Shown here: piece after piece, positions 1 to 6,184 of the stretch | How positions within the stretch are numbered: the stretch's first letter is position 1 | How the letters are laid out: every line of letters begins with the position of its first letter | IMG/VR virus record: IMGVR_UViG_3300045988_013197 | Span: 1-6,184 of that record | Strand: one strand, 5' to 3' | From: a virus | Length of the DNA: 6,184 nt | Translations under genes and position numbers: made by a program | The notes under the pieces: model-generated | Database searches by the model: none | Told to the model about the DNA's origin: nothing | What the model saw: only the letters and a program-made list of their open reading frames with translations

Positions 1-55
1 CGGATTATATGACATCTGCTGCTAGTGGTTCGGCTAATACCTCTCAATTAAAATC
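1..55. repeat. Terminal redundancy copy 1 (circular-genome overlap), identical to 6130..6184
   Basis: cggattatatgacatctgctgctagtggttcggctaatacctctcaattaaaatc occurs at 1-55 and again, with no mismatch, at 6130-6184. The offset is 6129 nt (divisible by 3), and the capsid reading frame stays open across the junction. Confidence 0.95.
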
Positions 56-1454
56 CGTTCCTTATGTTAATCTGAATCTCATTTCCACACTTCTAAATGG
101 TGCAATTTCCTCGAAGGCTGTTGATGATGCTGGCTTTGGCTATTGCTATGGTGCTTGTAAGATTCTGGATTATCTTGGATATGGAGCGTTTATCGGTTCT
201 GGTAATACAAAAAAAGCGGATATTACCACCCAATATCTAGGTACTTCTTATACTGCTGATTCTCAGAATCCCTTGGTTTTCGGCACTTCTATGGTCGTAA
301 ACTTGCTTCCTGTATTGGCTTATCAGAAGATCTACTTTGATTTTTTCAGCAATTCTCAATGGGAGAAACATTTGGCTTATGCTTATAATGTTGATTATTG
401 GGACGGCACTTCTCCGGTAACTCCTGTTGCTGATATGTTTAAGCTTCGCTATTCCAACTATCCTAAGGATTATTTCCTTGGTGTTCTTCCTAATTCTCAA
501 TATGGCTCGGTAGCTGCTTTGCCGTCTGTTCACTCTCTAACTGATGACTCTAATAAAGTAGTCGTTTTTACTCCTAACTCTTCTCCTTATAATGGCTTAG
601 TTCAGAACGATCCGAATACTTCTAATGTTACTGTTAACAATCAGAATAAATCTGATGTTCGTTATGCGACGCTTAACTCTGACCTCTCCGCTCTTTCAAT
701 CCGTGCAACGGAGTATTTACAGCGCTGGAAAGAAGTAATTCAATTTAGTAGTAAGGACTATTCAGACCAGATGGCTGCTCAGTTTGGCATTAAAGCTCCC
801 GAATATATGGGTAATCATGCTCATTATATTGGAGGTTGGTCTAATGTTATTAATATTAATGAGGTTCTGAATACTAACTTGACTGCTGATAACTCTCAAG
901 CTGTTATTGCTGGTAAAGGTGTTGGTTCTAAGTCTGGTCATGTTATTAATTATGATTGTGGTGCTGAACATCAGGTAATTATGTGTGTATATCATGCTGT
1001 TCCTTTGGTTGACTGGTCCTTGAAAGGTCAGAATCCTCAATTGACTGTAACTGATATTTCTGACTTTCCGCAGCCCGCCTTCGATCAATTAGGTCTGCAA
1101 CCTGTGTCAGCTTTGAATCTTAATAACAGTCCGTCGTCCCCGACTGGTAATATTGGTTATAATTTGCGTTACTGGCAATGGAAGTCTAATGTTGATACGG
1201 TTCATGGAGGTTTCCGTCCCTCTGCTACGTATCAATCTTGGGTCGCTTCTATCCAATCTTCATGGCCTCAGGTTTCAGGCCAGAGTTCGTTTTCTTATCA
1301 GTCGTTTAAGATTCGTCCTCAGCAGATGAACTCTATCTTTGAGCCTCAGATTTCAACTTCTAATTATAGTCTGGCTTTTGATCAGTTGTTGTGTAATGTT
1401 AATTTTCAGGTATATGCTGTGCAGAATCTGGATAGAAATGGTTTACCTTATTAA
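1..1454 (+). CDS. VP1: Major capsid protein VP1/F, C-terminal part (5' partial in this linearisation; first full codon at 3)
   Basis: Open from the window start in the frame of 9..1454, with stop TAA at 1452-1454. It is in frame with 5847..6129 across the 6129-nt circle, giving 1737 nt and 578 aa. It contains the capsid blocks LRYSNYPKDYFLGVLPNSQYG, IRATEYLQRWKE and FGIKAPEYMGNHAHYIGG, which resemble the R..dYF..lP.PQ.G, lR.a.alQ.w.E and FGv...d.rl.RPEylGG motifs of gokusho/alpa-type VP1. Third-position T bias is strong. Confidence 0.93.
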   Translation, partial: DYMTSAASGSANTSQLKSVPYVNLNLISTLLNGAISSKAVDDAGFGYCYGACKILDYLGYGAFIGSGNTKKADITTQYLGTSYTADSQNPLVFGTSMVVNLLPVLAYQKIYFDFFSNSQWEKHLAYAYNVDYWDGTSPVTPVADMFKLRYSNYPKDYFLGVLPNSQYGSVAALPSVHSLTDDSNKVVVFTPNSSPYNGLVQNDPNTSNVTVNNQNKSDVRYATLNSDLSALSIRATEYLQRWKEVIQFSSKDYSDQMAAQFGIKAPEYMGNHAHYIGGWSNVININEVLNTNLTADNSQAVIAGKGVGSKSGHVINYDCGAEHQVIMCVYHAVPLVDWSLKGQNPQLTVTDISDFPQPAFDQLGLQPVSALNLNNSPSSPTGNIGYNLRYWQWKSNVDTVHGGFRPSATYQSWVASIQSSWPQVSGQSSFSYQSFKIRPQQMNSIFEPQISTSNYSLAFDQLLCNVNFQVYAVQNLDRNGLPY

Positions 1455-1470
1455 TTAATTGTGTGTTACT

Positions 1471-1914
1471 ATGAGAAGTTTTGCTTACAAAAATGAAAAT
1501 TTTGTTGAGGATGATTATCGTCCTCAATTAGTAGAAGGTCATCCCTGTTATCAGGCTAGTGTATATGATTCTGTAATGTTGGAAGAAGTATGTGATGATT
1601 CGTTTAAGTTGATGGATATGACTTCTATTCTTTTGAATCAGGAGAAGTATCGTCGTCTTCTCGGTGATATGAATGTACAGAATATCCTTGCCCAGATGCA
1701 TCCTACTCAGTCTACTACTATGGATAGTATGACTGATGAGGAACGTTTTAATTGTGTCATTTCTCGACATTGTCAAACTATTTCTGAAAGGCAAGCTGTC
1801 CTTCAACAATTAGCTAGAGAGAAGTCTGAATTGTCTGCTTTTGCTGAATCTATGTTGGCAGAGACTAAGGCAGCGCCGTCCTCGGATTCCGCATCTGCCT
1901 CTAGCGCTCAATGA
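1471..1914 (+). CDS. Hypothetical 147-aa acidic protein, possibly an internal scaffolding (VP3-like) protein
   Basis: ATG at 1471, preferred over the TTG at 1459 used by the ORF track. It starts 16 nt after the VP1 stop, and its stop TGA (1912-1914) overlaps the next ATG (1911) as ATGA. Codon usage matches the genome. The protein is acidic and ends in a Ser/Ala-rich tail (AAPSSDSASASSAQ). I recognise no diagnostic motif, so the scaffold call rests only on size, charge and its position between the capsid genes. Confidence 0.75.
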   Translation: MRSFAYKNENFVEDDYRPQLVEGHPCYQASVYDSVMLEEVCDDSFKLMDMTSILLNQEKYRRLLGDMNVQNILAQMHPTQSTTMDSMTDEERFNCVISRHCQTISERQAVLQQLAREKSELSAFAESMLAETKAAPSSDSASASSAQ

Positions 1915-3014
1915 TTGGTTCCTTGTTTGGCAGTATGATTAATGCTATGTCGCAGTCCAATGCGAATGCGTCCAATGAATTAATCGCTACACAGAATCGT
2001 CAGGCTGCCCAGCATGAAGCCTATTTGTCTCGGCAATGGCAGAAGTATATGGTTGATTATCAGAATCAGTACAATTCTCCTACTGCTCAGATTGCTCGAG
2101 GTTTGAATCCTTTTGTTAGTTCTACTGGTGCGGGTACTTCTGCTTCTCCTGGTTCTTCTCCTCAGGCTACTATTCCCTCTACTCCTGCTATGCAAGGTGT
2201 CCATGTGGATTTATCTGGTATTGATTCTGCATTGGCGACATTTGCTCAGGCTCGGAAGGCTATTACTGAGTCTAATCAGGTTGAGACTCTTACCCCCCTC
2301 TTAGCTAGAAAAATTATGGGAGACACTGATTATAAGAATATTGGTGTTGGTGAGTCTGGTTATTGGGACTCTAATACTGGTCGTATTTCTGCTGAGCTGG
2401 ACCAGTCTAGAGAGCGTCAGGATCTTGAAAATGCGGTTGCTGCTGGTAAATTGTCTGCGGCTCAGACTTCTCATATTTATTTGCAGGCTGATGCTCAAGC
2501 TATCCTGAATAAATATATGGATGCTCAGCAGCAAGCAGATTTGCTTACAAAAGCCCAGTATCTTTATAACCTTCAACAACAAGGTGCTTTAACCGAGAAG
2601 CAGATTCAAACTGAGCTTCAACGTGCACTCCAGATTGCTGCTCAGACACAAGGTCAGAAAATTTCTAACAACATTGCTTCTGACACTGCTGATGCTCTAA
2701 TATCTGCTACGAATATGGCTTACTATACACAGTATTATGATTCTCTCTGGGATTACAAGAATGTCAACAATCGTAAGAATATGCAGTATTCTAAGGATAA
2801 AGCCATTCGCGATTATTACAAGTGGTCTGCTGGTAATGCCAAGAAAGACTTTGATTCTTATGGCCTGCGCAATGCTATAGACTATACGTCTCGTATTTTT
2901 CAAGGTGCTGGTAATGTAATTGGAGCTATGCGCCCTGGTCCCCAGATTTTCCGTAATGATTACGGTCCTCGTAACACTACTATTTATAATGGTTCTAATG
3001 GTATTGGTTATTAG
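1911..3014 (+). CDS. VP2: Minor capsid / DNA pilot protein (VP2-like, H-like)
   Basis: 367 aa, with its start coupled by an ATGA overlap to the upstream ORF. The N-terminal block ...QNRQAAQHEAYLSRQWQKYMVDYQNQYNSPTAQIARGLNPF resembles the conserved VP2 N-terminus, which ends in a GLNP motif. This is followed by an S/T/P/G-rich linker (about 2120-2195) and then a long Q/A/L-rich predicted coiled-coil. That architecture is typical of microvirus pilot proteins. Confidence 0.8.
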   Translation: MIGSLFGSMINAMSQSNANASNELIATQNRQAAQHEAYLSRQWQKYMVDYQNQYNSPTAQIARGLNPFVSSTGAGTSASPGSSPQATIPSTPAMQGVHVDLSGIDSALATFAQARKAITESNQVETLTPLLARKIMGDTDYKNIGVGESGYWDSNTGRISAELDQSRERQDLENAVAAGKLSAAQTSHIYLQADAQAILNKYMDAQQQADLLTKAQYLYNLQQQGALTEKQIQTELQRALQIAAQTQGQKISNNIASDTADALISATNMAYYTQYYDSLWDYKNVNNRKNMQYSKDKAIRDYYKWSAGNAKKDFDSYGLRNAIDYTSRIFQGAGNVIGAMRPGPQIFRNDYGPRNTTIYNGSNGIGY

Positions 3015-3036
3015 CTGTTAACATACTTTAGGACTA

Positions 3037-3054
3037 AGAGCCCATCACGGCTCT
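3037..3054 (+). other. Stem-loop 1 (6 bp, 6-nt loop)
   Basis: agagcc (3037-3042) pairs perfectly with ggctct (3049-3054). The loop is catcac. Confidence 0.6.
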
Positions 3055-3066
3055 GGAGTGATATAC

Positions 3067-3091
3067 ACCGGCCGCCCGCCTAGGGCCTGGT
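3067..3091 (+). other. Stem-loop 2 (7 bp GC-rich, one bulge, 10-nt loop)
   Basis: accggcc (3067-3073) pairs with ggcc-t-ggt (3084-3091), with t3088 bulged. The loop is gcccgcctag. Confidence 0.55.
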
Positions 3092-3096
3092 ATAAA
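3088..3096 (+). promoter_or_regulatory. Extended -10-like element (TGgTATAAA)
   Basis: tggtataaa at 3088-3096 matches the TGnTATAAT extended -10 pattern in 8 of its 9 positions (5 of 6 in the hexamer). There is no TTGACA-like -35 at the expected spacing. It would start transcription near the base of stem-loop 3. It is of doubtful relevance if the host is Bacteroidota, which uses TAnnTTTG promoters. Confidence 0.2.
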
Positions 3097-3099
3097 ATG

Positions 3100-3135
3100 G
3101 AGCGGAGCGACTTCCTTAGAGAAGCGTTCCGCTTC
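3100..3135 (+). other. Stem-loop 3 (about 14 bp, the longest hairpin in the island)
   Basis: gagcggagcg-a-cttc (3100-3114) pairs with gaag-cgttccgc-t-tc (3121-3135). There are 4 inner bp (cttc/gaag), a bulged a3110, and then 10 bp that include one g3107-t3127 wobble and a bulged t3133. The loop is cttaga. Confidence 0.7.
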
Positions 3136-3161
3136 GGTATTTTAGCACGTAGGTGCGCAAA

Positions 3162-3183
3162 GGCAGGTTCTATCTGACCTGCC
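3162..3183 (+). other. Stem-loop 4 (7-8 bp)
   Basis: ggcaggt (3162-3168) pairs with acctgcc (3177-3183), and an optional t3169-g3176 wobble extends the stem. The loop is ctatct. Confidence 0.7.
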
Positions 3184-3188
3184 GTGCC

Positions 3189-3203
3189 TATACACCCTGT
3201 ATA
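3189..3203 (+). other. Stem-loop 5 (6 bp, 3-nt loop), built from two copies of the TATACA motif
   Basis: tataca (3189-3194) pairs with tgtata (3198-3203). The loop is ccc. Confidence 0.55.
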
Positions 3204-3241
3204 CATCCACTTTGTCATTCAAGCGAAGCCCCTAGTTGTGT

Positions 3242-3275
3242 CCGAAGGAAATTTGAGTTATCATCTCAAATTCGG
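3242..3275 (+). other. Stem-loop 6 (8 bp perfect, plus a 3-bp extension)
   Basis: aatttgag (3250-3257) pairs with ctcaaatt (3265-3272), with loop ttatcat. ccg (3242-3244) can pair with cgg (3273-3275) across a 5-nt bulge, aagga. Confidence 0.7.
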
Positions 3276-3321
3276 CCTCCCCTTGTCCATAAACGCACAA
3301 CTCACACTCTAACCGTAGAAT

Positions 3322-3370
3322 AAAAAAAACTCTGGAATATTTTGTTTATTCGAAAATAATTCTTTCCTTT
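3322..3370 (+). terminator. Possible weak intrinsic terminator (A-tract, AT-rich hairpin, T-rich tail)
   Basis: The A8 run at 3322-3329 is followed by gaatatttt (3335-3343), which pairs with aaaata-a-ttc (3353-3362) as 9 bp with one bulged A. The T-rich tail tttccttt follows at 3363-3370. The stem is all A/T except the closing G-C, so its stability is low. Confidence 0.25.
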
Positions 3371-3422
3371 GCCCCTGTAGAAACCAACTCATTAAATTAT
3401 TAACATTTAAAATCTTACAATT
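3371..3422 (+). promoter_or_regulatory. AT-rich leader or putative promoter region for the downstream operon
   Basis: This is an AT-rich tract immediately upstream of the first gene after the gap. TTTG at 3368-3371 and taaattat at 3393-3400 give only a partial resemblance to the Bacteroidota -33 TTTG and -7 TAnnTTTG elements. The placement is plausible, but the motif match is weak. Confidence 0.2.
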
Positions 3423-3617
3423 ATGCAAAAATTTATTATTTCAGTCAAAGCAAAAGCTACTGGTCATGATGTTGTTCCGCCTTATATTGTCAATTCTCTC
3501 GATGGTCTTGGAACTTATTCTGAGCGAATGTCTCCGTTGGGCTTTATCGTTATTGTGGATTCGATTAAAGAAGAAAATGATTTTGTTTATTTTAAATCTC
3601 AGGACAATGAAAAGTAA
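3423..3617 (+). CDS. Hypothetical 64-aa protein
   Basis: ATG at 3423 and TAA at 3615-3617. The third-position T bias matches the genome (ttt att att ... gct act ggt cat gat gtt gtt). The 3' end overlaps the next start by 11 nt. I recognise no motif, and the protein is not basic, so it is not a J/VP8-like DNA-binding protein. Confidence 0.6.
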   Translation: MQKFIISVKAKATGHDVVPPYIVNSLDGLGTYSERMSPLGFIVIVDSIKEENDFVYFKSQDNEK

Positions 3618-3690
3618 TAATATCTGGAAAATTGTTATTGGCGCTGTTTCTGCTGCTTTAGGTTACATTCTTAATGCTATTGGGCTATGA
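3607..3690 (+). CDS. 27-aa single-pass membrane micro-protein, a holin-like candidate
   Basis: The ATG at 3607 lies inside the last codons of the 64-aa ORF, and the stop TGA (3688-3690) overlaps the peptidase ATG (3687) as ATGA. The peptide is MKSNNIWKIVIGAVSAALGYILNAIGL, a short polar N-terminus followed by an uncharged hydrophobic stretch of about 20 residues. 17 of the 27 codons end in T, matching genome codon usage. If this ORF were not coding, it would leave a 69-nt gap in an otherwise gapless operon. The longer 3466 start in the ORF track is a +1-frame artefact. Confidence 0.55.
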   Translation: MKSNNIWKIVIGAVSAALGYILNAIGL

Positions 3691-3992
3691 ATTACACTCT
3701 TATGCATTTTCTTGAGTACTTGTTGTATTCTAATGCTCATTTTTCTGTAACTAGTGCCAGGCGTACTCCTGAGCAGAATAAAGCTTGCAATGGTGCTCCG
3801 AATTCTCAGCATCTTGTAGGAGAAGCTGTTGATATTAAGCCTTATGGTTCTACTTCGTTTAGTAAGTTGCTCGAAATGATTCATCTTTTTTCTGATAATG
3901 TTTCGCCATTTGACCAGCTTATTATATATCCGACATTTATTCATATTTCGTTCTGTTCCCGTAATCGTCGACAGATAATAGATAAACGTTAA
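3687..3992 (+). CDS. Zinc D-Ala-D-Ala carboxypeptidase-like peptidoglycan peptidase (M15 / LAS superfamily, Peptidase_M15_3-like), a putative endolysin
   Basis: The 101-aa protein contains TSARRTPEQNKACNGAPNSQHLVGEAVDI and a downstream TFIHISF. This fits the family signature (S/T)xxR(S/T)xxxNxxxGGxxxSxHxxGxAxD plus a distal His. The predicted Zn ligands are H42 (3810-3812), D49 (3831-3833) and H86 (3942-3944). No N-terminal signal peptide is evident. Confidence 0.85.
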   Translation: MNYTLMHFLEYLLYSNAHFSVTSARRTPEQNKACNGAPNSQHLVGEAVDIKPYGSTSFSKLLEMIHLFSDNVSPFDQLIIYPTFIHISFCSRNRRQIIDKR

Positions 3993-3997
3993 TACTT

Positions 3998-5830
3998 ATG
4001 AAATATTCGCCAGAATTGCTTAAAGCTGCTGATTGTTGTCAGCATCGCTCATTTATTACCAACAAATATACGGGTAAGCGTATCGCTGTAGATTGCGGTC
4101 AATGCGATCACTGTATCCACAAGCGAGCTCAAAAGGCGTCTATGCGTGTGAAGACCGCTGGAAGTGCCTTCGAACATTGTTGGTTTGTTACGCTCACCTA
4201 TGATAATGAGCACATTCCGTTGTTTAATTGCGAGGTGTACTGCTCCGAATATGACGATGTTTTAAGTGATTCTGGCGTTGTTCATGGCTATGAAAAACAT
4301 TCTTATATTCCTGTTTCTGACTATCAACCTGAGGATTCTTCCCTTTTACGTCATATATTCTTCACGCAAGTTCAAGGTACAGTGCCGTTTGACCGTGAGA
4401 ACAAGGAATATGTTCCTGTTAAGGATAATTGGTTTCTTAGCATGGATGCTATTCGTAGTTTTATTCGTAAAACGCAGGCCGTTGACAATTCAGTCTATCC
4501 CGTTGCTGAAAAATACGGTGTTGATAACCTTATACCCTTTCTGAATTATGTTGATGTTCAGAATTATATTAAACGCTTACGTAAATATTTATATCAAGTT
4601 TTAGGTTCTTATGAAACGTTACACTTCTACGCTGTGGGTGAATACGGACCAGTCCATTTCCGCCCGCATTATCATATCTTATTATTCTCAAACTCGGAAA
4701 AAGTCTCAGCGGTATTACGACAGTGTCATGATAAGAGTTGGAAATTCGGTCGTTCAGATTTCCAGATTGCCCGTGGTGGAGCTTCATCATACGTTGCGAG
4801 TTATGTTAACAGCCTTAGTTCTGCTCCCTTATTATATCGAGCATGCAACTCATTTAAACCCCGACAAAGAGCGTCTCTTGGATTTTTTGAAAAAGGCGAG
4901 GTTTACGAGGAAGGTGAAGACGTCTATCATGCGATTGAGCAAAAAATCGATTCTGTCATTAATGGCCGAGTCTATAACTTCAACGGGATTAGTGTTAAAT
5001 CAACTCCCCCCTTGTCGTATATCCGTACCTTATTGCCCCGATTCTCAAGTGCTCGCTATGACGATGCTGTTGCGATTGCTAGAATTATTCGAGCTGTTGC
5101 AGATGCGCCAAAAAGAATCGCAAGGTTTGGTATTATAGATTATAATTCCGATTCTACCCTTTCTATTGTTCGTGCTTATTATCAATATATTACTTTAAAT
5201 CATCATTTAACCAATGAAGATGAAATTGTTTTACATTCTGCTCGGTGTCTTACTAGGCTCTGTAACAGTTCTTCTGATGTCGATATTAAATCTTATATTA
5301 ATAAGTTATATCGGCTATTCCTTTATGTCAGTAAGTTCCTTAGGAATTGGCATCTGCCTCCCATCGGTGGTAATCTTGATTCTTATGCCAATCGTATTAA
5401 TTTTATCATTAAAACAGGTATAGAGTATGAGAAAAAAGCGGACTATGTACGAATGTGTGATTCGTTGCGAATACAAGAAACATGTGAATTCCCTTTATTG
5501 CGATATTTTTACTTACCAGCCTCAGGATGTGAGGTGTCGACCGTTAAGGAGGAGAAAGACGGAACATTTTCCACGTACACTATTCGAGACAGAATGGCAG
5601 GAATCAAACCCACCATCTTACACTTTGATGACCCCCGAAAATTATTACTTTCCCCAGCTCTTTCTCGTTTGGTCGGATCATCCTTTAAAGCCTCGCAACC
5701 TGCAAATTACAACGATTTGTGCGACGACTTACAAAGGTGTCTGGATAACCGTGCATCGACGTTCTGCCGTGATATGATTAAACATAAGAAGCTAAATGAC
5801 GCTAATAATATATTTAACCGTATGGTCTAA
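3998..5830 (+). CDS. VP4: Rolling-circle replication initiator (HUH endonuclease; VP4 / gene A-like), unusually large at 610 aa
   Basis: The N-terminal Cys cluster is CC-x18-CGQCDHC. Motif 1 is FVTLTY (4184-4201) and the HUH motif is HYHILLF (4667-4687). The catalytic double-Tyr motif YVASYVN (4790-4810) is nearly identical to the phiX174 A protein active site YVAKYVNK. The gene starts 5 nt after the peptidase stop. Confidence 0.93.
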   Translation: MKYSPELLKAADCCQHRSFITNKYTGKRIAVDCGQCDHCIHKRAQKASMRVKTAGSAFEHCWFVTLTYDNEHIPLFNCEVYCSEYDDVLSDSGVVHGYEKHSYIPVSDYQPEDSSLLRHIFFTQVQGTVPFDRENKEYVPVKDNWFLSMDAIRSFIRKTQAVDNSVYPVAEKYGVDNLIPFLNYVDVQNYIKRLRKYLYQVLGSYETLHFYAVGEYGPVHFRPHYHILLFSNSEKVSAVLRQCHDKSWKFGRSDFQIARGGASSYVASYVNSLSSAPLLYRACNSFKPRQRASLGFFEKGEVYEEGEDVYHAIEQKIDSVINGRVYNFNGISVKSTPPLSYIRTLLPRFSSARYDDAVAIARIIRAVADAPKRIARFGIIDYNSDSTLSIVRAYYQYITLNHHLTNEDEIVLHSARCLTRLCNSSSDVDIKSYINKLYRLFLYVSKFLRNWHLPPIGGNLDSYANRINFIIKTGIEYEKKADYVRMCDSLRIQETCEFPLLRYFYLPASGCEVSTVKEEKDGTFSTYTIRDRMAGIKPTILHFDDPRKLLLSPALSRLVGSSFKASQPANYNDLCDDLQRCLDNRASTFCRDMIKHKKLNDANNIFNRMV

Positions 5831-5846
5831 TTTAAATTAATTAATT

Positions 5847-6184
5847 ATGAGTGATTTTAATCCGCTAGACCGAGCGAAAGTTGCCGTTCATCGCTCCTCC
5901 TTTGACTTGTCTAGTAAAAAATTATTTACGGCAAAAATTGGAGAGATCCTTCCTTGTTATTGGCAGATTGCTATTCCTGGTAACAAGTATCGTATCTCTT
6001 CTGACTGGTTTACTCGTACTGTTCCCGTTAATACGGCCGCATATACCCGTATTAAGGAGTATTATGATTTCTATGCTGTGCCGTTACGTTTAATTTCTCG
6101 TGCCCTTCCACAGGCATTTACTCAAATGACGGATTATATGACATCTGCTGCTAGTGGTTCGGCTAATACCTCTCAATTAAAATC
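5847..6184 (+). CDS. VP1: Major capsid protein VP1/F, N-terminal part (runs off the window end and continues at 56 through the circular junction)
   Basis: ATG at 5847, 16 nt after the Rep stop, with no stop codon to the window end. My translation is MSDFNPLDRAKVAVHRSSFDLSSKKLFTAKIGEILPCYWQIAIPGNKYRISSDWFTRTVPVNTAAYTRIKEYYDFYAVPLRLISRALPQAFTQMTDYMTSAASG... The RSSFDLS, G-x-LP, PG-x and FYAVPLRLI blocks match the conserved N-terminus of Microviridae major capsid proteins (compare Chlamydia-phage VP1 RSSFDRS...PGD...FFVPLRLIW). This ORF is absent from the supplied track only because it has no in-window stop. Confidence 0.93.
   Translation, partial: MSDFNPLDRAKVAVHRSSFDLSSKKLFTAKIGEILPCYWQIAIPGNKYRISSDWFTRTVPVNTAAYTRIKEYYDFYAVPLRLISRALPQAFTQMTDYMTSAASGSANTSQLK
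6130..6184. repeat. Terminal redundancy copy 2 (circular-genome overlap), identical to 1..55
   Basis: Exact 55-nt copy of the window start. This implies a 6129-nt circular molecule that was linearised inside the capsid gene. Confidence 0.95.

Follow-up and report, generated by a model that had tools for sequence, protein, structure and literature searches.

A conserved folded region behind the pilot gene of gut microviruses is a candidate complementary-strand origin on the packaged strand

Results

A non-coding gap behind the pilot gene

The window analyzed here is a 6,184-nt stretch of microvirus DNA (IMG/VR record IMGVR_UViG_3300045988_013197, positions 1 to 6,184) that carries all of its genes on one strand. 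Its sole sizeable non-coding stretch, positions 3015-3422 (408 nt), is bounded by the TAG stop of the pilot protein gene (3012-3014) and an ATG at 3423. A preliminary description had tied this gap to the capsid-gene transcript, but the gene that precedes it encodes the pilot protein and not the capsid. The same description saw no credible open reading frame (ORF) here, and we agree: the window ORFs at 3153-3323, 3184-3312 and 3045-3218 (minus strand) are intact in just 3-8 of 70 homologues, and the lengths of gap ORFs across homologues fall into all three classes modulo 3. A coding role for 3015-3422 was ruled out on the grounds that these ORFs are not conserved among the 70 homologues. The other junctions had been given as 16 nt or shorter, but one of 69 nt exists (3618-3686).

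The composition reported earlier (about 51% GC and lack of the T bias) also holds, with GC at 0.515 in 3031-3300 versus 0.398 genome-wide, and an AT skew of about -0.06 to -0.07 in the core versus -0.1 to -0.3 in most coding windows. The size of the gap is atypical, as had been stated, when compared to phiX174 and G4, but not within its own gut family, where post-pilot gaps of related phages span 266-1056 nt and large gaps are therefore typical. Searches for known RNAs with Rfam cmscan (E up to 10) found no match in 3015-3407, and the first inspection had recognized no family either; nearby, Rfam returned just one hit (3408-3445), which at 15 bits is noise. A tRNA/tmRNA scan found neither.

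The gap consists of three parts, module A, module B and an AT-rich tail, with the following features (window coordinates):

3022-3210, plus strand: module A, a multi-hairpin domain of high GC content (53%) that is exchangeable between relatives
3044-3062 (3044-48/3058-62), plus strand: H1, hairpin ATCAC/GTGAT, 100% paired
3070-3086 (3074-77/3083-86), plus strand: H2a, hairpin, 100% paired
3070-72/3078-80, plus strand: overlapping pairing, a pseudoknot or alternative conformer, 100% paired
3099-3106/3128-3135, plus strand: long hairpin, alternative to MH1 and H3, covarying
3102-3108, plus strand: MH1, mini-hairpin GCGGAGC, invariant except for loop N (GCGGAGC in 57, GCGAAGC in 13 homologues)
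3121-3135, plus strand: H3, hairpin GAAGCG-TTC-CGCTTC followed by GGTATTTTAG, covarying
3145-3156, plus strand: H4, hairpin GCAC-GTAG-GTGC, 100% paired
3157-3187, plus strand: H5, hairpin GCA..GGCAGGT/ACCTGCC..TGC, 5 of 10 pairs change on both sides
3189-3203, plus strand: H6, hairpin TATACA/TGTATA, optional, present in most homologues
3219-3308, plus strand: module B, a universally conserved three-way junction (covariance model R1)
3223-3229, plus strand: MH2, mini-hairpin GCGAAGC (GCGAAGC in 63, GCGGAGC in 6, ACGAAGT in 1 homologue)
3234-3241/3295-3302, plus strand: H7, long-range helix AGTTGTGT/GCACAACT that closes the junction, 100% paired
3242-3248, plus strand: MH3, mini-hairpin CCGAAGG stacked on H7, closing pair covaries
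3250-3272, plus strand: H8, hairpin AATTTGAG-TTATCAT-CTCAAATT, covarying
3273-3307, plus strand: pyrimidine-rich single strand with invariant CTTGTCCATAAAC at 3282-3294 (70-sequence alignment)
3303-3307, plus strand: CACAC tail 3′ of the H7 arm, invariant (70-sequence alignment)
3322-3329, plus strand: A8 run 3′ of module B, conserved at a length of 6-9 A in almost every homologue
3341-3371, plus strand: Bacteroidota-type promoter (-33 TTTG at 3341-3344, 19-nt spacer, -7 TTCCTTTG at 3364-3371)
3372-3422, plus strand: leader of the early operon, with CAACT...ATTATTAAC at 3385-3404 (alignment)

The core is under selection for a plus-strand structure

Folded as RNA, the plus strand reaches -111.9 kcal/mol (z = -4.37), which none of 100 shuffles equaled, and the minus strand gives z = -2.09. 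For DNA folding of the core (3022-3310), z is -4.16 on the plus strand and -3.81 on the minus strand. That RNA folding favors the plus strand while the two strands fold alike as DNA counts against a DNA-only reading.

Across an alignment of 70 sequences, 97% of the cells in 13 helices can pair and 23 pairs have changed on both sides, a level of covariation reached by 0 of 500 shuffles; slid controls pair in merely 21-44% of cells. Both the comparison with shuffled controls and the search for compensatory changes that had been suggested for this region thus come out in favor of a structured element. Covarying pairs were taken from an APC-corrected G-test, since a listing over all column stacks was too noisy. 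A pairing of 3099-3109 with 3222-3230 proposed by RNAalifold was discarded, as neither side varies and each forms a mini-hairpin motif of its own.

Identity of the core to its homologues averages 86-89%, compared to 63-90% for coding windows. Because this identity is high and the ORFs are not conserved, the core is a non-coding stretch under purifying selection. Its structure is specific to the plus strand, which in Microviridae is the packaged strand: read in the plus-strand sense, the paired columns hold 102 G.T cells versus 39 A.C cells (G.T occurs at 3100:3134 in 27 homologues), and the covariance model of module B matches the plus strand exclusively. Covariation is compatible with single-stranded DNA (ssDNA) and same-sense RNA alike and cannot separate them.

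Module A is a variable array of hairpins

Several of the stems first proposed for module A are revised by the alignment. H1 tolerates exchange at 3047:3059 (GC 53, AU 10, CG 5), and the stem 3037-3042/3049-3054 competes with it or is knotted to it. This latter stem, originally drawn as 3037-3054, is partly conserved (pair 3038:3053 is AT in 50 and GC in 10 homologues) but is interrupted by A.G at 3039:3052 in 54 of 70 homologues. The stem drawn at 3067-3091 is supported in its inner part, H2a, and unsupported in the remainder. Two-sided changes occur both in H2a (3075:3085; CG 67, GC 2, AU 1) and in the pairing that overlaps it (3070:3080; CG 61, UA 5, GC 4).

The stem given as 3100-3135 is one of two pairings, the other being MH1 together with H3. 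The long form covaries at 3105:3129 (GC 57, AT 7) and 3100:3134 (GC 37, GT 27), and H3 at 3122:3134 (GC 66, AU 42). One group of relatives (L014 group) has swapped H3 for GCG[A/C/T]AGC, turning a 6-bp hairpin into a 2-bp mini-hairpin. Covariation supports the stem recorded at 3162-3183, here part of H5 (one H5 pair is GC in 39 and AU in 31 homologues). H6, also described earlier, occurs in most homologues but is deleted in about 9 of 70, and its covariation is almost nil. Two helices were absent from the earlier list, H4 (3145-3156) and the long-range H7 of module B (3234-41/3295-3302); in H4, pair 3147:3154 is AU in 53 and GC in 17 homologues, and the loop is a GGA triloop in many homologues.

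Module A is conserved in 117 of 123 related genomes. Five relatives (L078, L107, L120, L136 and L038) carry unrelated sequence in its place, and in L055 it is truncated. Identity to the window is uncorrelated between the two modules (rho -0.04).

Module B is a universally conserved three-way junction

Covariance model R1 finds exactly one plus-strand copy of module B in each genome searched, including distant relatives (E-values of 7e-8 for L246, 9e-5 for L243, 1e-3 for L242, 5e-3 for L241 and 0.02 for L244), and the module is kept even where capsid identity is 25-37%. With the distant relatives aligned, 96.4% of cells are paired, and two-sided changes are seen at 18 of 20 pairs. Covariation in H7 involves three pairs in the close set and 7 of 8 in the wide set, and the inner pair of H7 is still T.G in 11 of 14 sequences; in H8, two-sided changes affect 6 of 8 pairs in the close set and all 8 in the wide set. 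The region 3242-3275, once drawn as a single stem, is indeed paired but is really two hairpins, 3242-48 (MH3) and 3250-72 (H8).

The single strand of the junction is also kept, as CTTGTC or CTCGTC followed by a ...CAC tail is recognizable in L241-L246. Iteron-like direct repeats adjoin module B in L244 (three 20-nt copies, 23-24 nt apart) and L246 (two copies); no such repeats follow it in the window itself. Identity of module B correlates modestly with that of the C-terminal half of Rep (rho 0.51).

The element recurs in microviruses and not in representative genomes

More than 110 independent microvirus contigs and 35 GenBank microviruses, from lemur, dog, human and marmot samples, carry the core, always in this location. 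A signature search of 185,579 representative bacterial and archaeal genomes found the element absent: all 87 signature hits were chance matches by nhmmer, and no prophage or host copy was among them. We reject the view, considered earlier, that 3015-3422 came from a host by horizontal transfer or is a chimera of the assembly, for which the GC content above that of the rest of the genome would speak. The recurrence in independent contigs, the absence from representative genomes and the purifying selection with compensatory changes all argue against it.

Att-site integration has been proposed for Bacteroidetes-associated microvirus proviruses, whose att sites flank a genome of identical gene order (PMC3091885). 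Given this order, their attP would fall in the equivalent gap, which would favor reading the gap as an XerC/XerD dif-like attP, perhaps acting as folded ssDNA as in CTX-phi. We consider this very improbable, as the bacterial 28-bp dif consensus gave no match with up to 3 mismatches, no integrated copy occurs among the 185,579 genomes, and a 28-bp site leaves 290 nt of covarying structure unexplained.

GNA-triloop mini-hairpins are enriched on the plus strand

MH1, MH2 and MH3 all have the features that define GNA mini-hairpins, namely closure of the loop by a C-G pair, a loop that begins with G, ends with A and is free (N) in the middle, and a complementary outer pair. Where the motifs vary, they do so at loop N or by compensatory changes of the outer pair. 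The closing pair of MH3 is GC in 60, CG in 39 and AU in 9 sequences, with forms that include GCGAAGC (29), CCGAAGG (19), CCGGAGG (6) and ACGAAGT (4). GCGNAGC reaches a density of 8.5/kb on the plus strand of the core versus 0.1-0.17/kb elsewhere or on the other strand. The enrichment extends to gaps that are unaligned or only remotely related to that of the window: the plus strand of the L038 gap holds 7 motifs versus 0.31 expected (0 of 2000 shuffles; minus strand 0), and the plus strands of the gaps of eight distant genomes hold 15 versus 1.66 expected (0 of 2000 shuffles; minus strand 5). We know of no richer natural array of GNA-triloop DNA mini-hairpins on one genetic element. C-GAA-G loops also cap the presumptive terminator hairpins, and the motif is therefore not exclusive to untranscribed DNA.

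GNA loops are the only loops that form such mini-hairpins, which melt at 70-76 C as DNA and are bound poorly by single-stranded DNA-binding protein (SSB); the RNA forms are far less stable, r(GCGAAAGC) melting at 39 C (PMC13037366). Mini-hairpins are present at the primase sites of G4, St-1 and alpha3, the ssiA site of RSF1010 carries a heptamer identical to MH3 (CCGAAGG), and the N4 hairpin promoters carry one identical to MH1 (GCGGAGC) (PMC13037366).

Promoter, leader and terminators

The only recognizable promoter of the phage lies in the AT-rich tail (3341-3371), and we propose that it drives the early operon, including Rep. It reads TTTG-N19-TTCCTTTG, one mismatch from -33 TTTG, a 19-21 nt spacer and -7 TAnnTTTG, which is the established consensus of Bacteroides promoters. 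Of 114 homologues, 67 have the strict form (TTTG-N19-21-TAnnTTTG) at this position; elsewhere it turns up just 13 times on the plus strand and a single time on the minus strand. A sigma-70 promoter scan was set aside as uninformative for a Bacteroidota host. The leader that follows contains a nearly invariant TTATTAA and, at 3385-3404, a gapped resemblance to the phiX origin (CAACT..ATTATTAAC); this motif, which 57 of 114 clade genomes have in their leaders and which is seldom seen outside them, is an alternative candidate for the plus-strand origin.

H3 with its trailing GGTATTTTAG was flagged as terminator-like and is the sole such candidate in the gap. Among relatives, canonical hairpin-plus-T-run terminators lie 5′ of module B in L078, L107 and L120; 5 genomes have one between the two modules, and 7 have one 5′ of module A. 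The fold therefore need not be part of a mature transcript. In 72 of 110 genomes, the window included, no canonical terminator precedes module A, which would then probably be transcribed as a 3′ UTR.

These observations bear on whether the fold is RNA at the 3′ end of a genome-length transcript (a terminator, an exonuclease-blocking 3′ UTR or a new ncRNA), a reading related to the structured ncRNA or stabilizing 3′ UTR first suggested. With a single promoter and all genes on one strand, the core would lie at the 3′ end of the transcript; the plus-strand bias of RNA folding, the terminator-like H3, the two pseudoknot-like or alternative pairings with compensatory changes and the 72 genomes without an upstream terminator all fit. 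However, the core has no Rfam match, its most constrained parts are 2-bp-stem mini-hairpins that are weak as RNA (PMC13037366), H3 can be replaced by a 2-bp mini-hairpin that would not terminate transcription, and at least 15 relatives have a canonical terminator 5′ of module B or of the two modules together. For a separate small RNA, there is no promoter 5′ and no T-run 3′ of the core. Weakened in this way, an RNA role is judged unlikely.

Discussion

We favor the gap being a non-coding control region of the phage as the best explanation. More specifically, at a probability of roughly 0.5, the packaged strand would here carry an origin region that works at the DNA level, mainly as a complementary-strand origin; every microvirus needs such an origin, and the genome has no other sizeable non-coding stretch. 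This role, named among several in the preliminary description, is favored because of the packaged-strand-specific structure, the mini-hairpin arrays and the position between terminator and promoter in relatives. We infer the DNA nature of the fold, priming at the gap and the identity of the enzyme. The ~290-nt core would act as folded ssDNA of the plus strand and not as RNA. After injection, host SSB would coat the genome, and the hairpin cluster with its GNA mini-hairpins (GCGGAGC, GCGAAGC, CCGAAGG) would remain folded and SSB-free, marking a site at which a primase, the PriA primosome or RNA polymerase would make the complementary-strand primer. Module B, which displays the invariant CTTGTCCATAAAC ... 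CACAC, would be the core recognition and initiation element, and module A may be an exchangeable accessory or a second initiation signal. Conserved intergenic hairpins of other microviruses have likewise been proposed as complementary-strand origins (PMC9865509).

Alternatively, module B could be the plus-strand origin, at which an HUH Rep would nick the displayed invariant strand (CTTG/TC...), with module A as the exchangeable single-strand origin. CTTG is the 5′ side of the phiX174 nick site and counts toward this alternative. The layout resembles that of rolling-circle plasmids (sso, dso with nic and bind, rep operon), module B lies just 5′ of the promoter of the Rep-encoding operon, and the single-stranded motif is kept at 25-37% capsid identity. 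Module B tracks the C-terminal half of Rep best, module A evolves independently, and iteron-like repeats directly follow module B in L244 and L246; the repeats and the correlation also fit a Rep origin. Against it, the phiX174-type plus origin (CAACTTGATATTAATAAC) was not found with up to 3 mismatches, the characterized microvirus plus origins sit inside the Rep gene and are not hairpins, and the leader motif at 3385-3404 is a separate plus-origin candidate. Genomes lacking module A would be left with a terminator hairpin as their sole obvious complementary-strand origin, and mini-hairpins are documented at priming sites and not at Rep nick sites (PMC13037366). On balance, we find a Rep origin rather improbable.

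Compared to characterized systems, the sequence likeness is confined to short mini-hairpin motifs, as judged from the heptamers. The primase-dependent origins of G4, St-1, phiK and alpha3 are, as in the gap, intergenic non-coding hairpin clusters on the packaged strand. Both the G4-type origins and the gap have GCGNNAGC-type or GCGNAGC-type mini-hairpins that resist SSB, and in each a long hairpin may alternate with a mini-hairpin (3099-3135 in the window) (PMC13037366). However, G4-type origins have about three hairpins in ~140 nt and the gap element more than 10 helices and three mini-hairpins in ~290 nt, with a long-range three-way junction that the former lack. Beyond the heptamers the two share no sequence homology, and the hosts differ (E. 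coli versus, presumably, Bacteroidota). The phiX174 primosome assembly site (n′/PriA) also consists of intergenic hairpin structure on the viral strand that would start complementary-strand synthesis (PMC9865509), but it is a single ~55-nt hairpin between F and G, whereas the gap element follows the pilot gene and has no similarity to it. In roodoodoo- and reekeekeeviruses, intergenic hairpins for which a minus-strand start was proposed show nucleotide conservation and compensatory substitutions like those of the gap (PMC9865509); there, however, the structure is simple, with one or two hairpins that measure 13-64 nt, compared to a two-module ~290-nt fold with mini-hairpin arrays.

Plasmids offer further parallels. 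RSF1010 ssiA/ssiB and plasmid ssoA/ssoU are orientation-specific folded ssDNA of 40-300 nt, like the gap, and ssiA has CCGAAGG in common with MH3. Plasmid sso elements are exchangeable cassettes adjoining the Rep origin; module A appears exchangeable in the same way, but the gap element resides in a phage. The order of structured element, iteron-like repeats and rep promoter in L244 and L246 is that of the pMV158-type double-strand origin, but the window has no repeats after module B and its Rep belongs to a different family.

In the literature, we found no description of the element, nor of Rep nick sites beyond phiX-like phages. It is doubtful that the core is an undescribed RNA acting beyond transcript stabilization or that module B represents a new class of HUH-Rep origin. 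Such an RNA may measure ~290 nt, combine a three-way junction of deep conservation with two pairings of pseudoknot type, and could serve, for example, in host-factor capture or in control of a switch between replication and packaging; in a new HUH-Rep class, the nick site would be presented by a mini-hairpin-capped three-way junction.

To our knowledge, replication origins of microviruses are known only for those of E. coli (phiX174, G4, alpha3 and St-1), and for the abundant gut microviruses that apparently infect Bacteroidota we know of nothing on the conversion of ssDNA to duplex or on the Rep nick site. The element described here is a concrete candidate that is widely conserved, has a defined architecture and displays single-stranded motifs that do not vary. 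Work on the mini-hairpin motif has centered on in vitro studies and on G4 and RSF1010; the element would extend it to an entire family of phages, and its variable module A and universal module B parallel the sso and dso cassettes of rolling-circle plasmids. Module B could furthermore be used to mark and orient these phages in metagenomes.

Genome context of the non-coding gap

Every credible gene of the window is encoded on the plus strand:

5847-6129 continuing 1-1454, plus strand, major capsid protein (phrog_514)
1459-1914, plus strand, 151-aa protein
1911-3014, plus strand, DNA pilot protein
3423-3617, plus strand, 64-aa protein
3687-3992, plus strand, peptidase-like protein
3998-5830, plus strand, Rep

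Because the window ends (1-55 and 6130-6184) are identical over 55 nt, the record represents a circular genome whose 6129 nt are extended by an assembly overlap; the capsid gene spans the join (ATG at 5847, stop at 1454, 578 aa). The gene upstream of 3015-3422 encodes the pilot protein and not, as the preliminary description implied, the capsid protein; nor are all other junctions 16 nt or shorter, given a 69-nt gap (3618-3686) between the 64-aa and peptidase-like ORFs, which an alternative ORF (3466-3690) overlaps. A 70-aa ORF at 5881-6093 lies inside the capsid gene, out of frame, and is unlikely to be a gene in its own right: the capsid coding sequence accounts for the strong conservation of its nucleotides.

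As first proposed, 3015-3422 holds no credible ORF: its three ORFs are intact in just 3-8 of 70 homologues, with lengths spanning all three classes modulo 3. The core is GC-rich (0.515 at 3031-3300 vs. 0.398 for the genome), with a weaker T bias than elsewhere. Folded as RNA, the plus strand reaches -111.9 kcal/mol (z = -4.37, matched by 0/100 shuffles), compared with z = -2.09 for the minus strand, while DNA parameters give the core z = -4.16 on the plus and -3.81 on the minus strand. The hairpin-dense island noted from the sequence stands, although its list of stems requires corrections, and Rfam has no family for the element, just as none had been recognized.

Conservation and distribution

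Homologues of the gap are found, in an equivalent place, in 35 GenBank microviruses sampled from lemur, dog, human and marmot (72-87% identity), and in 29 of 30 IMG/VR relatives found via the pilot protein, the sole exception (L016) being a contig that ends just past the pilot gene. A 16-base signature from the 3′ part of the gap matched >119 viral contigs, nearly all of ~6 kb, and yielded 114 distinct full-length copies. Mean nucleotide identity to the window is 86-89%, equal to or above that of coding regions, and reaches 94-95% where pilot-protein identity is just 74%. Among 185,579 representative genomes of bacteria and archaea the signature has 87 matches, none extending past the pattern; this set thus holds neither a host source nor a prophage copy. 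Together with the viral contigs and the compensatory changes described below, this leaves the suggested host fragment or chimeric assembly insertion unsupported. A dif-type attachment site is also unsupported, as the dif consensus finds no match at ≤3 mismatches and the 185,579 genomes hold no prophage copy.

Covarying structure of the plus strand

An APC-corrected scan of 114 sequences for covariation ranks Watson-Crick column pairs top, among them:

3242:3248, GC in 60, CG in 39, AU in 9
3122:3134, GC in 66, AU in 42
3253:3269, UA in 68, CG in 45
3147:3154, AU in 87, GC in 27

Counts over 13 defined helices in a MAFFT alignment of 70 sequences show 97.0% of cells paired, with 23 pairs and 250 cells changed on both sides; 0/500 shuffles attain these values, and slid controls give 21-44% pairing with ≤7 pairs changed on both sides. 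Such compensatory substitutions among related microviruses were among the checks that the preliminary description had proposed. Pairings compete in three places of the core, as pseudoknots or perhaps as alternative conformers:

3070-72/3078-80 versus 3074-77/3083-86, compensatory changes in both
3037-42/3049-54 versus 3044-48/3058-62
long hairpin 3099-3106/3128-3135 versus mini-hairpin 3102-3108 plus hairpin 3121-3135

G.T cells are more numerous than A.C cells (102 vs. 39), the T3241.G3295 pair is invariant, and G.T occurs at 3100:3134 in 27 homologues. Judged by these alignments, it is the plus strand that carries the structure, as had been claimed; in Microviridae this strand is both the mRNA-sense and the packaged strand.

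Two modules of the core

Module A (3022-3210) is found in most of the clade; unrelated sequence takes its place in L078, L107, L120, L136 and L038, and it is truncated in L055. Module B (3219-3308) is always present. It comprises, in order, a mini-hairpin (3223-3229), the long-range helix H7 (3234-3241/3295-3302) enclosing a second mini-hairpin (3242-3248), hairpin H8 (3250-3272) and a pyrimidine-rich single strand with an invariant CTTGTCCATAAAC, and a CACAC tail 3′ of the H7 3′ arm. Identities of the two modules to the window are uncorrelated (rho -0.04).

Eight relatives with capsid identity of just 25-37% (L241-L248: GenBank PP511387, PP511620, PP511695, PQ006775, PP511484, OQ686865, OR148995 and PP511882) have their genes in the same order, with unannotated post-pilot gaps of 266-1056 nt; the longest, in L246, may conceal unannotated minus-strand genes. 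The module B architecture was recognized in 6/8 by eye and DNA folding, and a module B covariance model finds exactly one match per genome, on the plus strand and in the expected place (L246 7e-8, L243 9e-5, L242 1e-3, L241 5e-3, L244 0.02, L245 1.2). On the model-fitted alignment, 96.4% of cells are paired and 18/20 pairs changed on both sides, against 29-40% pairing in slid controls.

Repeats also occur within module A. TATACACC appears twice in its invariant linkers with the related TGTATACATCC close by (3062-3069, 3189-3196, 3199-3209), and CCCTGTATACATCCACT shares 76% identity with CCCTGTAGAAACCAACT at the presumed transcription start (3195-3211 vs. 3373-3389); all of these may be protein-binding repeats or due to chance.

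Mini-hairpins with GNA triloops

The core carries three mini-hairpins:

3102-3108, plus strand, GCGGAGC
3223-3229, plus strand, GCGAAGC
3242-3248, plus strand, CCGAAGG

In the first two, homologues differ at the middle loop base only; the third differs at that base as well and also through compensatory changes in the outer pair (GCGAAGC 29, CCGAAGG 19, CCGGAGG 6, ACGAAGT 4). In one subgroup the 6-bp hairpin H3 (3121-3135) is swapped for GCG[A/C/T]AGC. GCGNAGC density is 8.5 per kb in the core plus strand vs. 0.1-0.17 per kb in other parts or on the opposite strand, and the motif is enriched on the plus strand even where sequence does not align with the window core:

Mini-hairpin counts (motif with complementary outer pair, vs. 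2000 shuffles)
L038 gap: plus 7, expected 0.31, 0/2000 shuffles; minus 0
Gaps of eight distant genomes: plus 15, expected 1.66, 0/2000 shuffles; minus 5
Window core: plus 3, expected 0.26, 4/2000 shuffles; minus 0

GNA loops alone form mini-hairpins, which melt at 70-76 °C as DNA, resist nucleases and bind SSB poorly; RNA counterparts are considerably less stable, r(GCGAAAGC) melting at 39 °C (PMC13037366). Mini-hairpins occur in the G4 primase start site (GCGAAAGC), St-1 and alpha3 (GCGTTAGC), RSF1010 ssiA (CCGAAGG) and N4 hairpin promoters (GCGGAGC) (PMC13037366). Upstream of module B, five genomes without module A or with part of it (L078:2985-3005; also L055, L107, L120, L136) carry TTCCGAAAGTA, preceded by a T run in 4/5, whose C-GAAA-G loop resembles that of the G4 mini-hairpin.

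Promoter, leader and terminators

The AT-rich tail contains a Bacteroidota-type promoter, TTTG-N19-TTCCTTTG (3341-3371). The strict consensus, TTTG-N19-21-TAnnTTTG, occurs at this position in 67/114 homologues and hardly anywhere else. As the sole such site in the genome and conserved in relatives, it indicates a host among the Bacteroidota and one operon spanning the genome. An A8 run (3322-3329; 6-9 A in nearly all homologues) lies directly 3′ of module B. The leader sequence CAACTCATTAAATTATTAAC (3385-3404) resembles the phiX174 plus-strand origin, CAACTTGATATTAATAAC; CAAYT-N0-8-ATTAWTAAY is found in the leader of 57/114 clade genomes, is rare elsewhere and is absent from the distant relatives.

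A rival reading makes module B the Rep nick locus and module A a single-strand origin. Module B immediately precedes the promoter of the Rep operon, its identity shows a modest correlation with that of Rep, and iteron-like repeats stand directly 3′ of it in L244 (4184-4250, three 20-nt copies 23-24 nt apart) and L246 (4470-4507, two 14-nt copies spaced 24 nt), suggesting that Rep or a regulator may bind there. We consider this arrangement unlikely.

Canonical hairpin-plus-T-run terminators precede module B in L078 (-24.4 kcal/mol), L107 and L120; 5 genomes have them between the modules and 7 ahead of module A, so that in these relatives the fold sits between terminator and promoter. An insertion of ~35 nt separates the modules in L019 (~3250-3300), L024, L027, L028 and L036; in the first three it forms a strong hairpin followed by 5-8 T, resembling an intrinsic terminator. 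Between pilot stop and module A, L018, L114, L126 and L130 have terminator-like hairpins (-15 to -19 kcal/mol, then T7-T8) with stems of C and G runs, most capped by C-GAA-G (e.g., CCCCCGCGAAGCGGGGG); the GNA triloop is thus used in presumptive terminators too.

A candidate complementary-strand origin

Covariation cannot decide between DNA and RNA. We favor a fold that functions as DNA, because its most constrained elements are 2-bp mini-hairpins, weak as RNA; because a normal hairpin and a mini-hairpin can replace each other, which is sensible only at about equal stability, as in DNA; and because canonical terminators precede module B or module A in relatives. That 72/110 genomes, the window included, lack a terminator-like structure before module A, and that the plus-strand preference is clearer in RNA than in DNA folding, would favor an RNA 3′ element, a reading we consider unlikely.

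The element is a candidate analogue of G4-type complementary-strand origins, the phiX174 primosome assembly site and plasmid ssi/sso signals. Like complementary-strand origins it is non-coding, packaged-strand-specific, under selection for pairing and furnished with mini-hairpins, which sustains the structural side of the origin proposed in the preliminary description; apart from the mini-hairpin heptamers, no sequence homology to any characterized origin is apparent. It is also larger and more elaborate than these sites, with >10 helices, a long-range three-way junction and three mini-hairpins. Literature searches yielded no account of it, and since the same role has been proposed for conserved intergenic hairpins of other microviruses (PMC9865509), the kind of element is already known.

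We put at roughly even odds (about 0.5) that the fold is a recognition or start site for complementary-strand priming by the host. On entry, the packaged strand would be coated by SSB apart from the fold, which the host priming machinery would recognize to initiate complementary-strand synthesis. Module B would be the conserved core of this fold, and module A an exchangeable accessory or a second signal.
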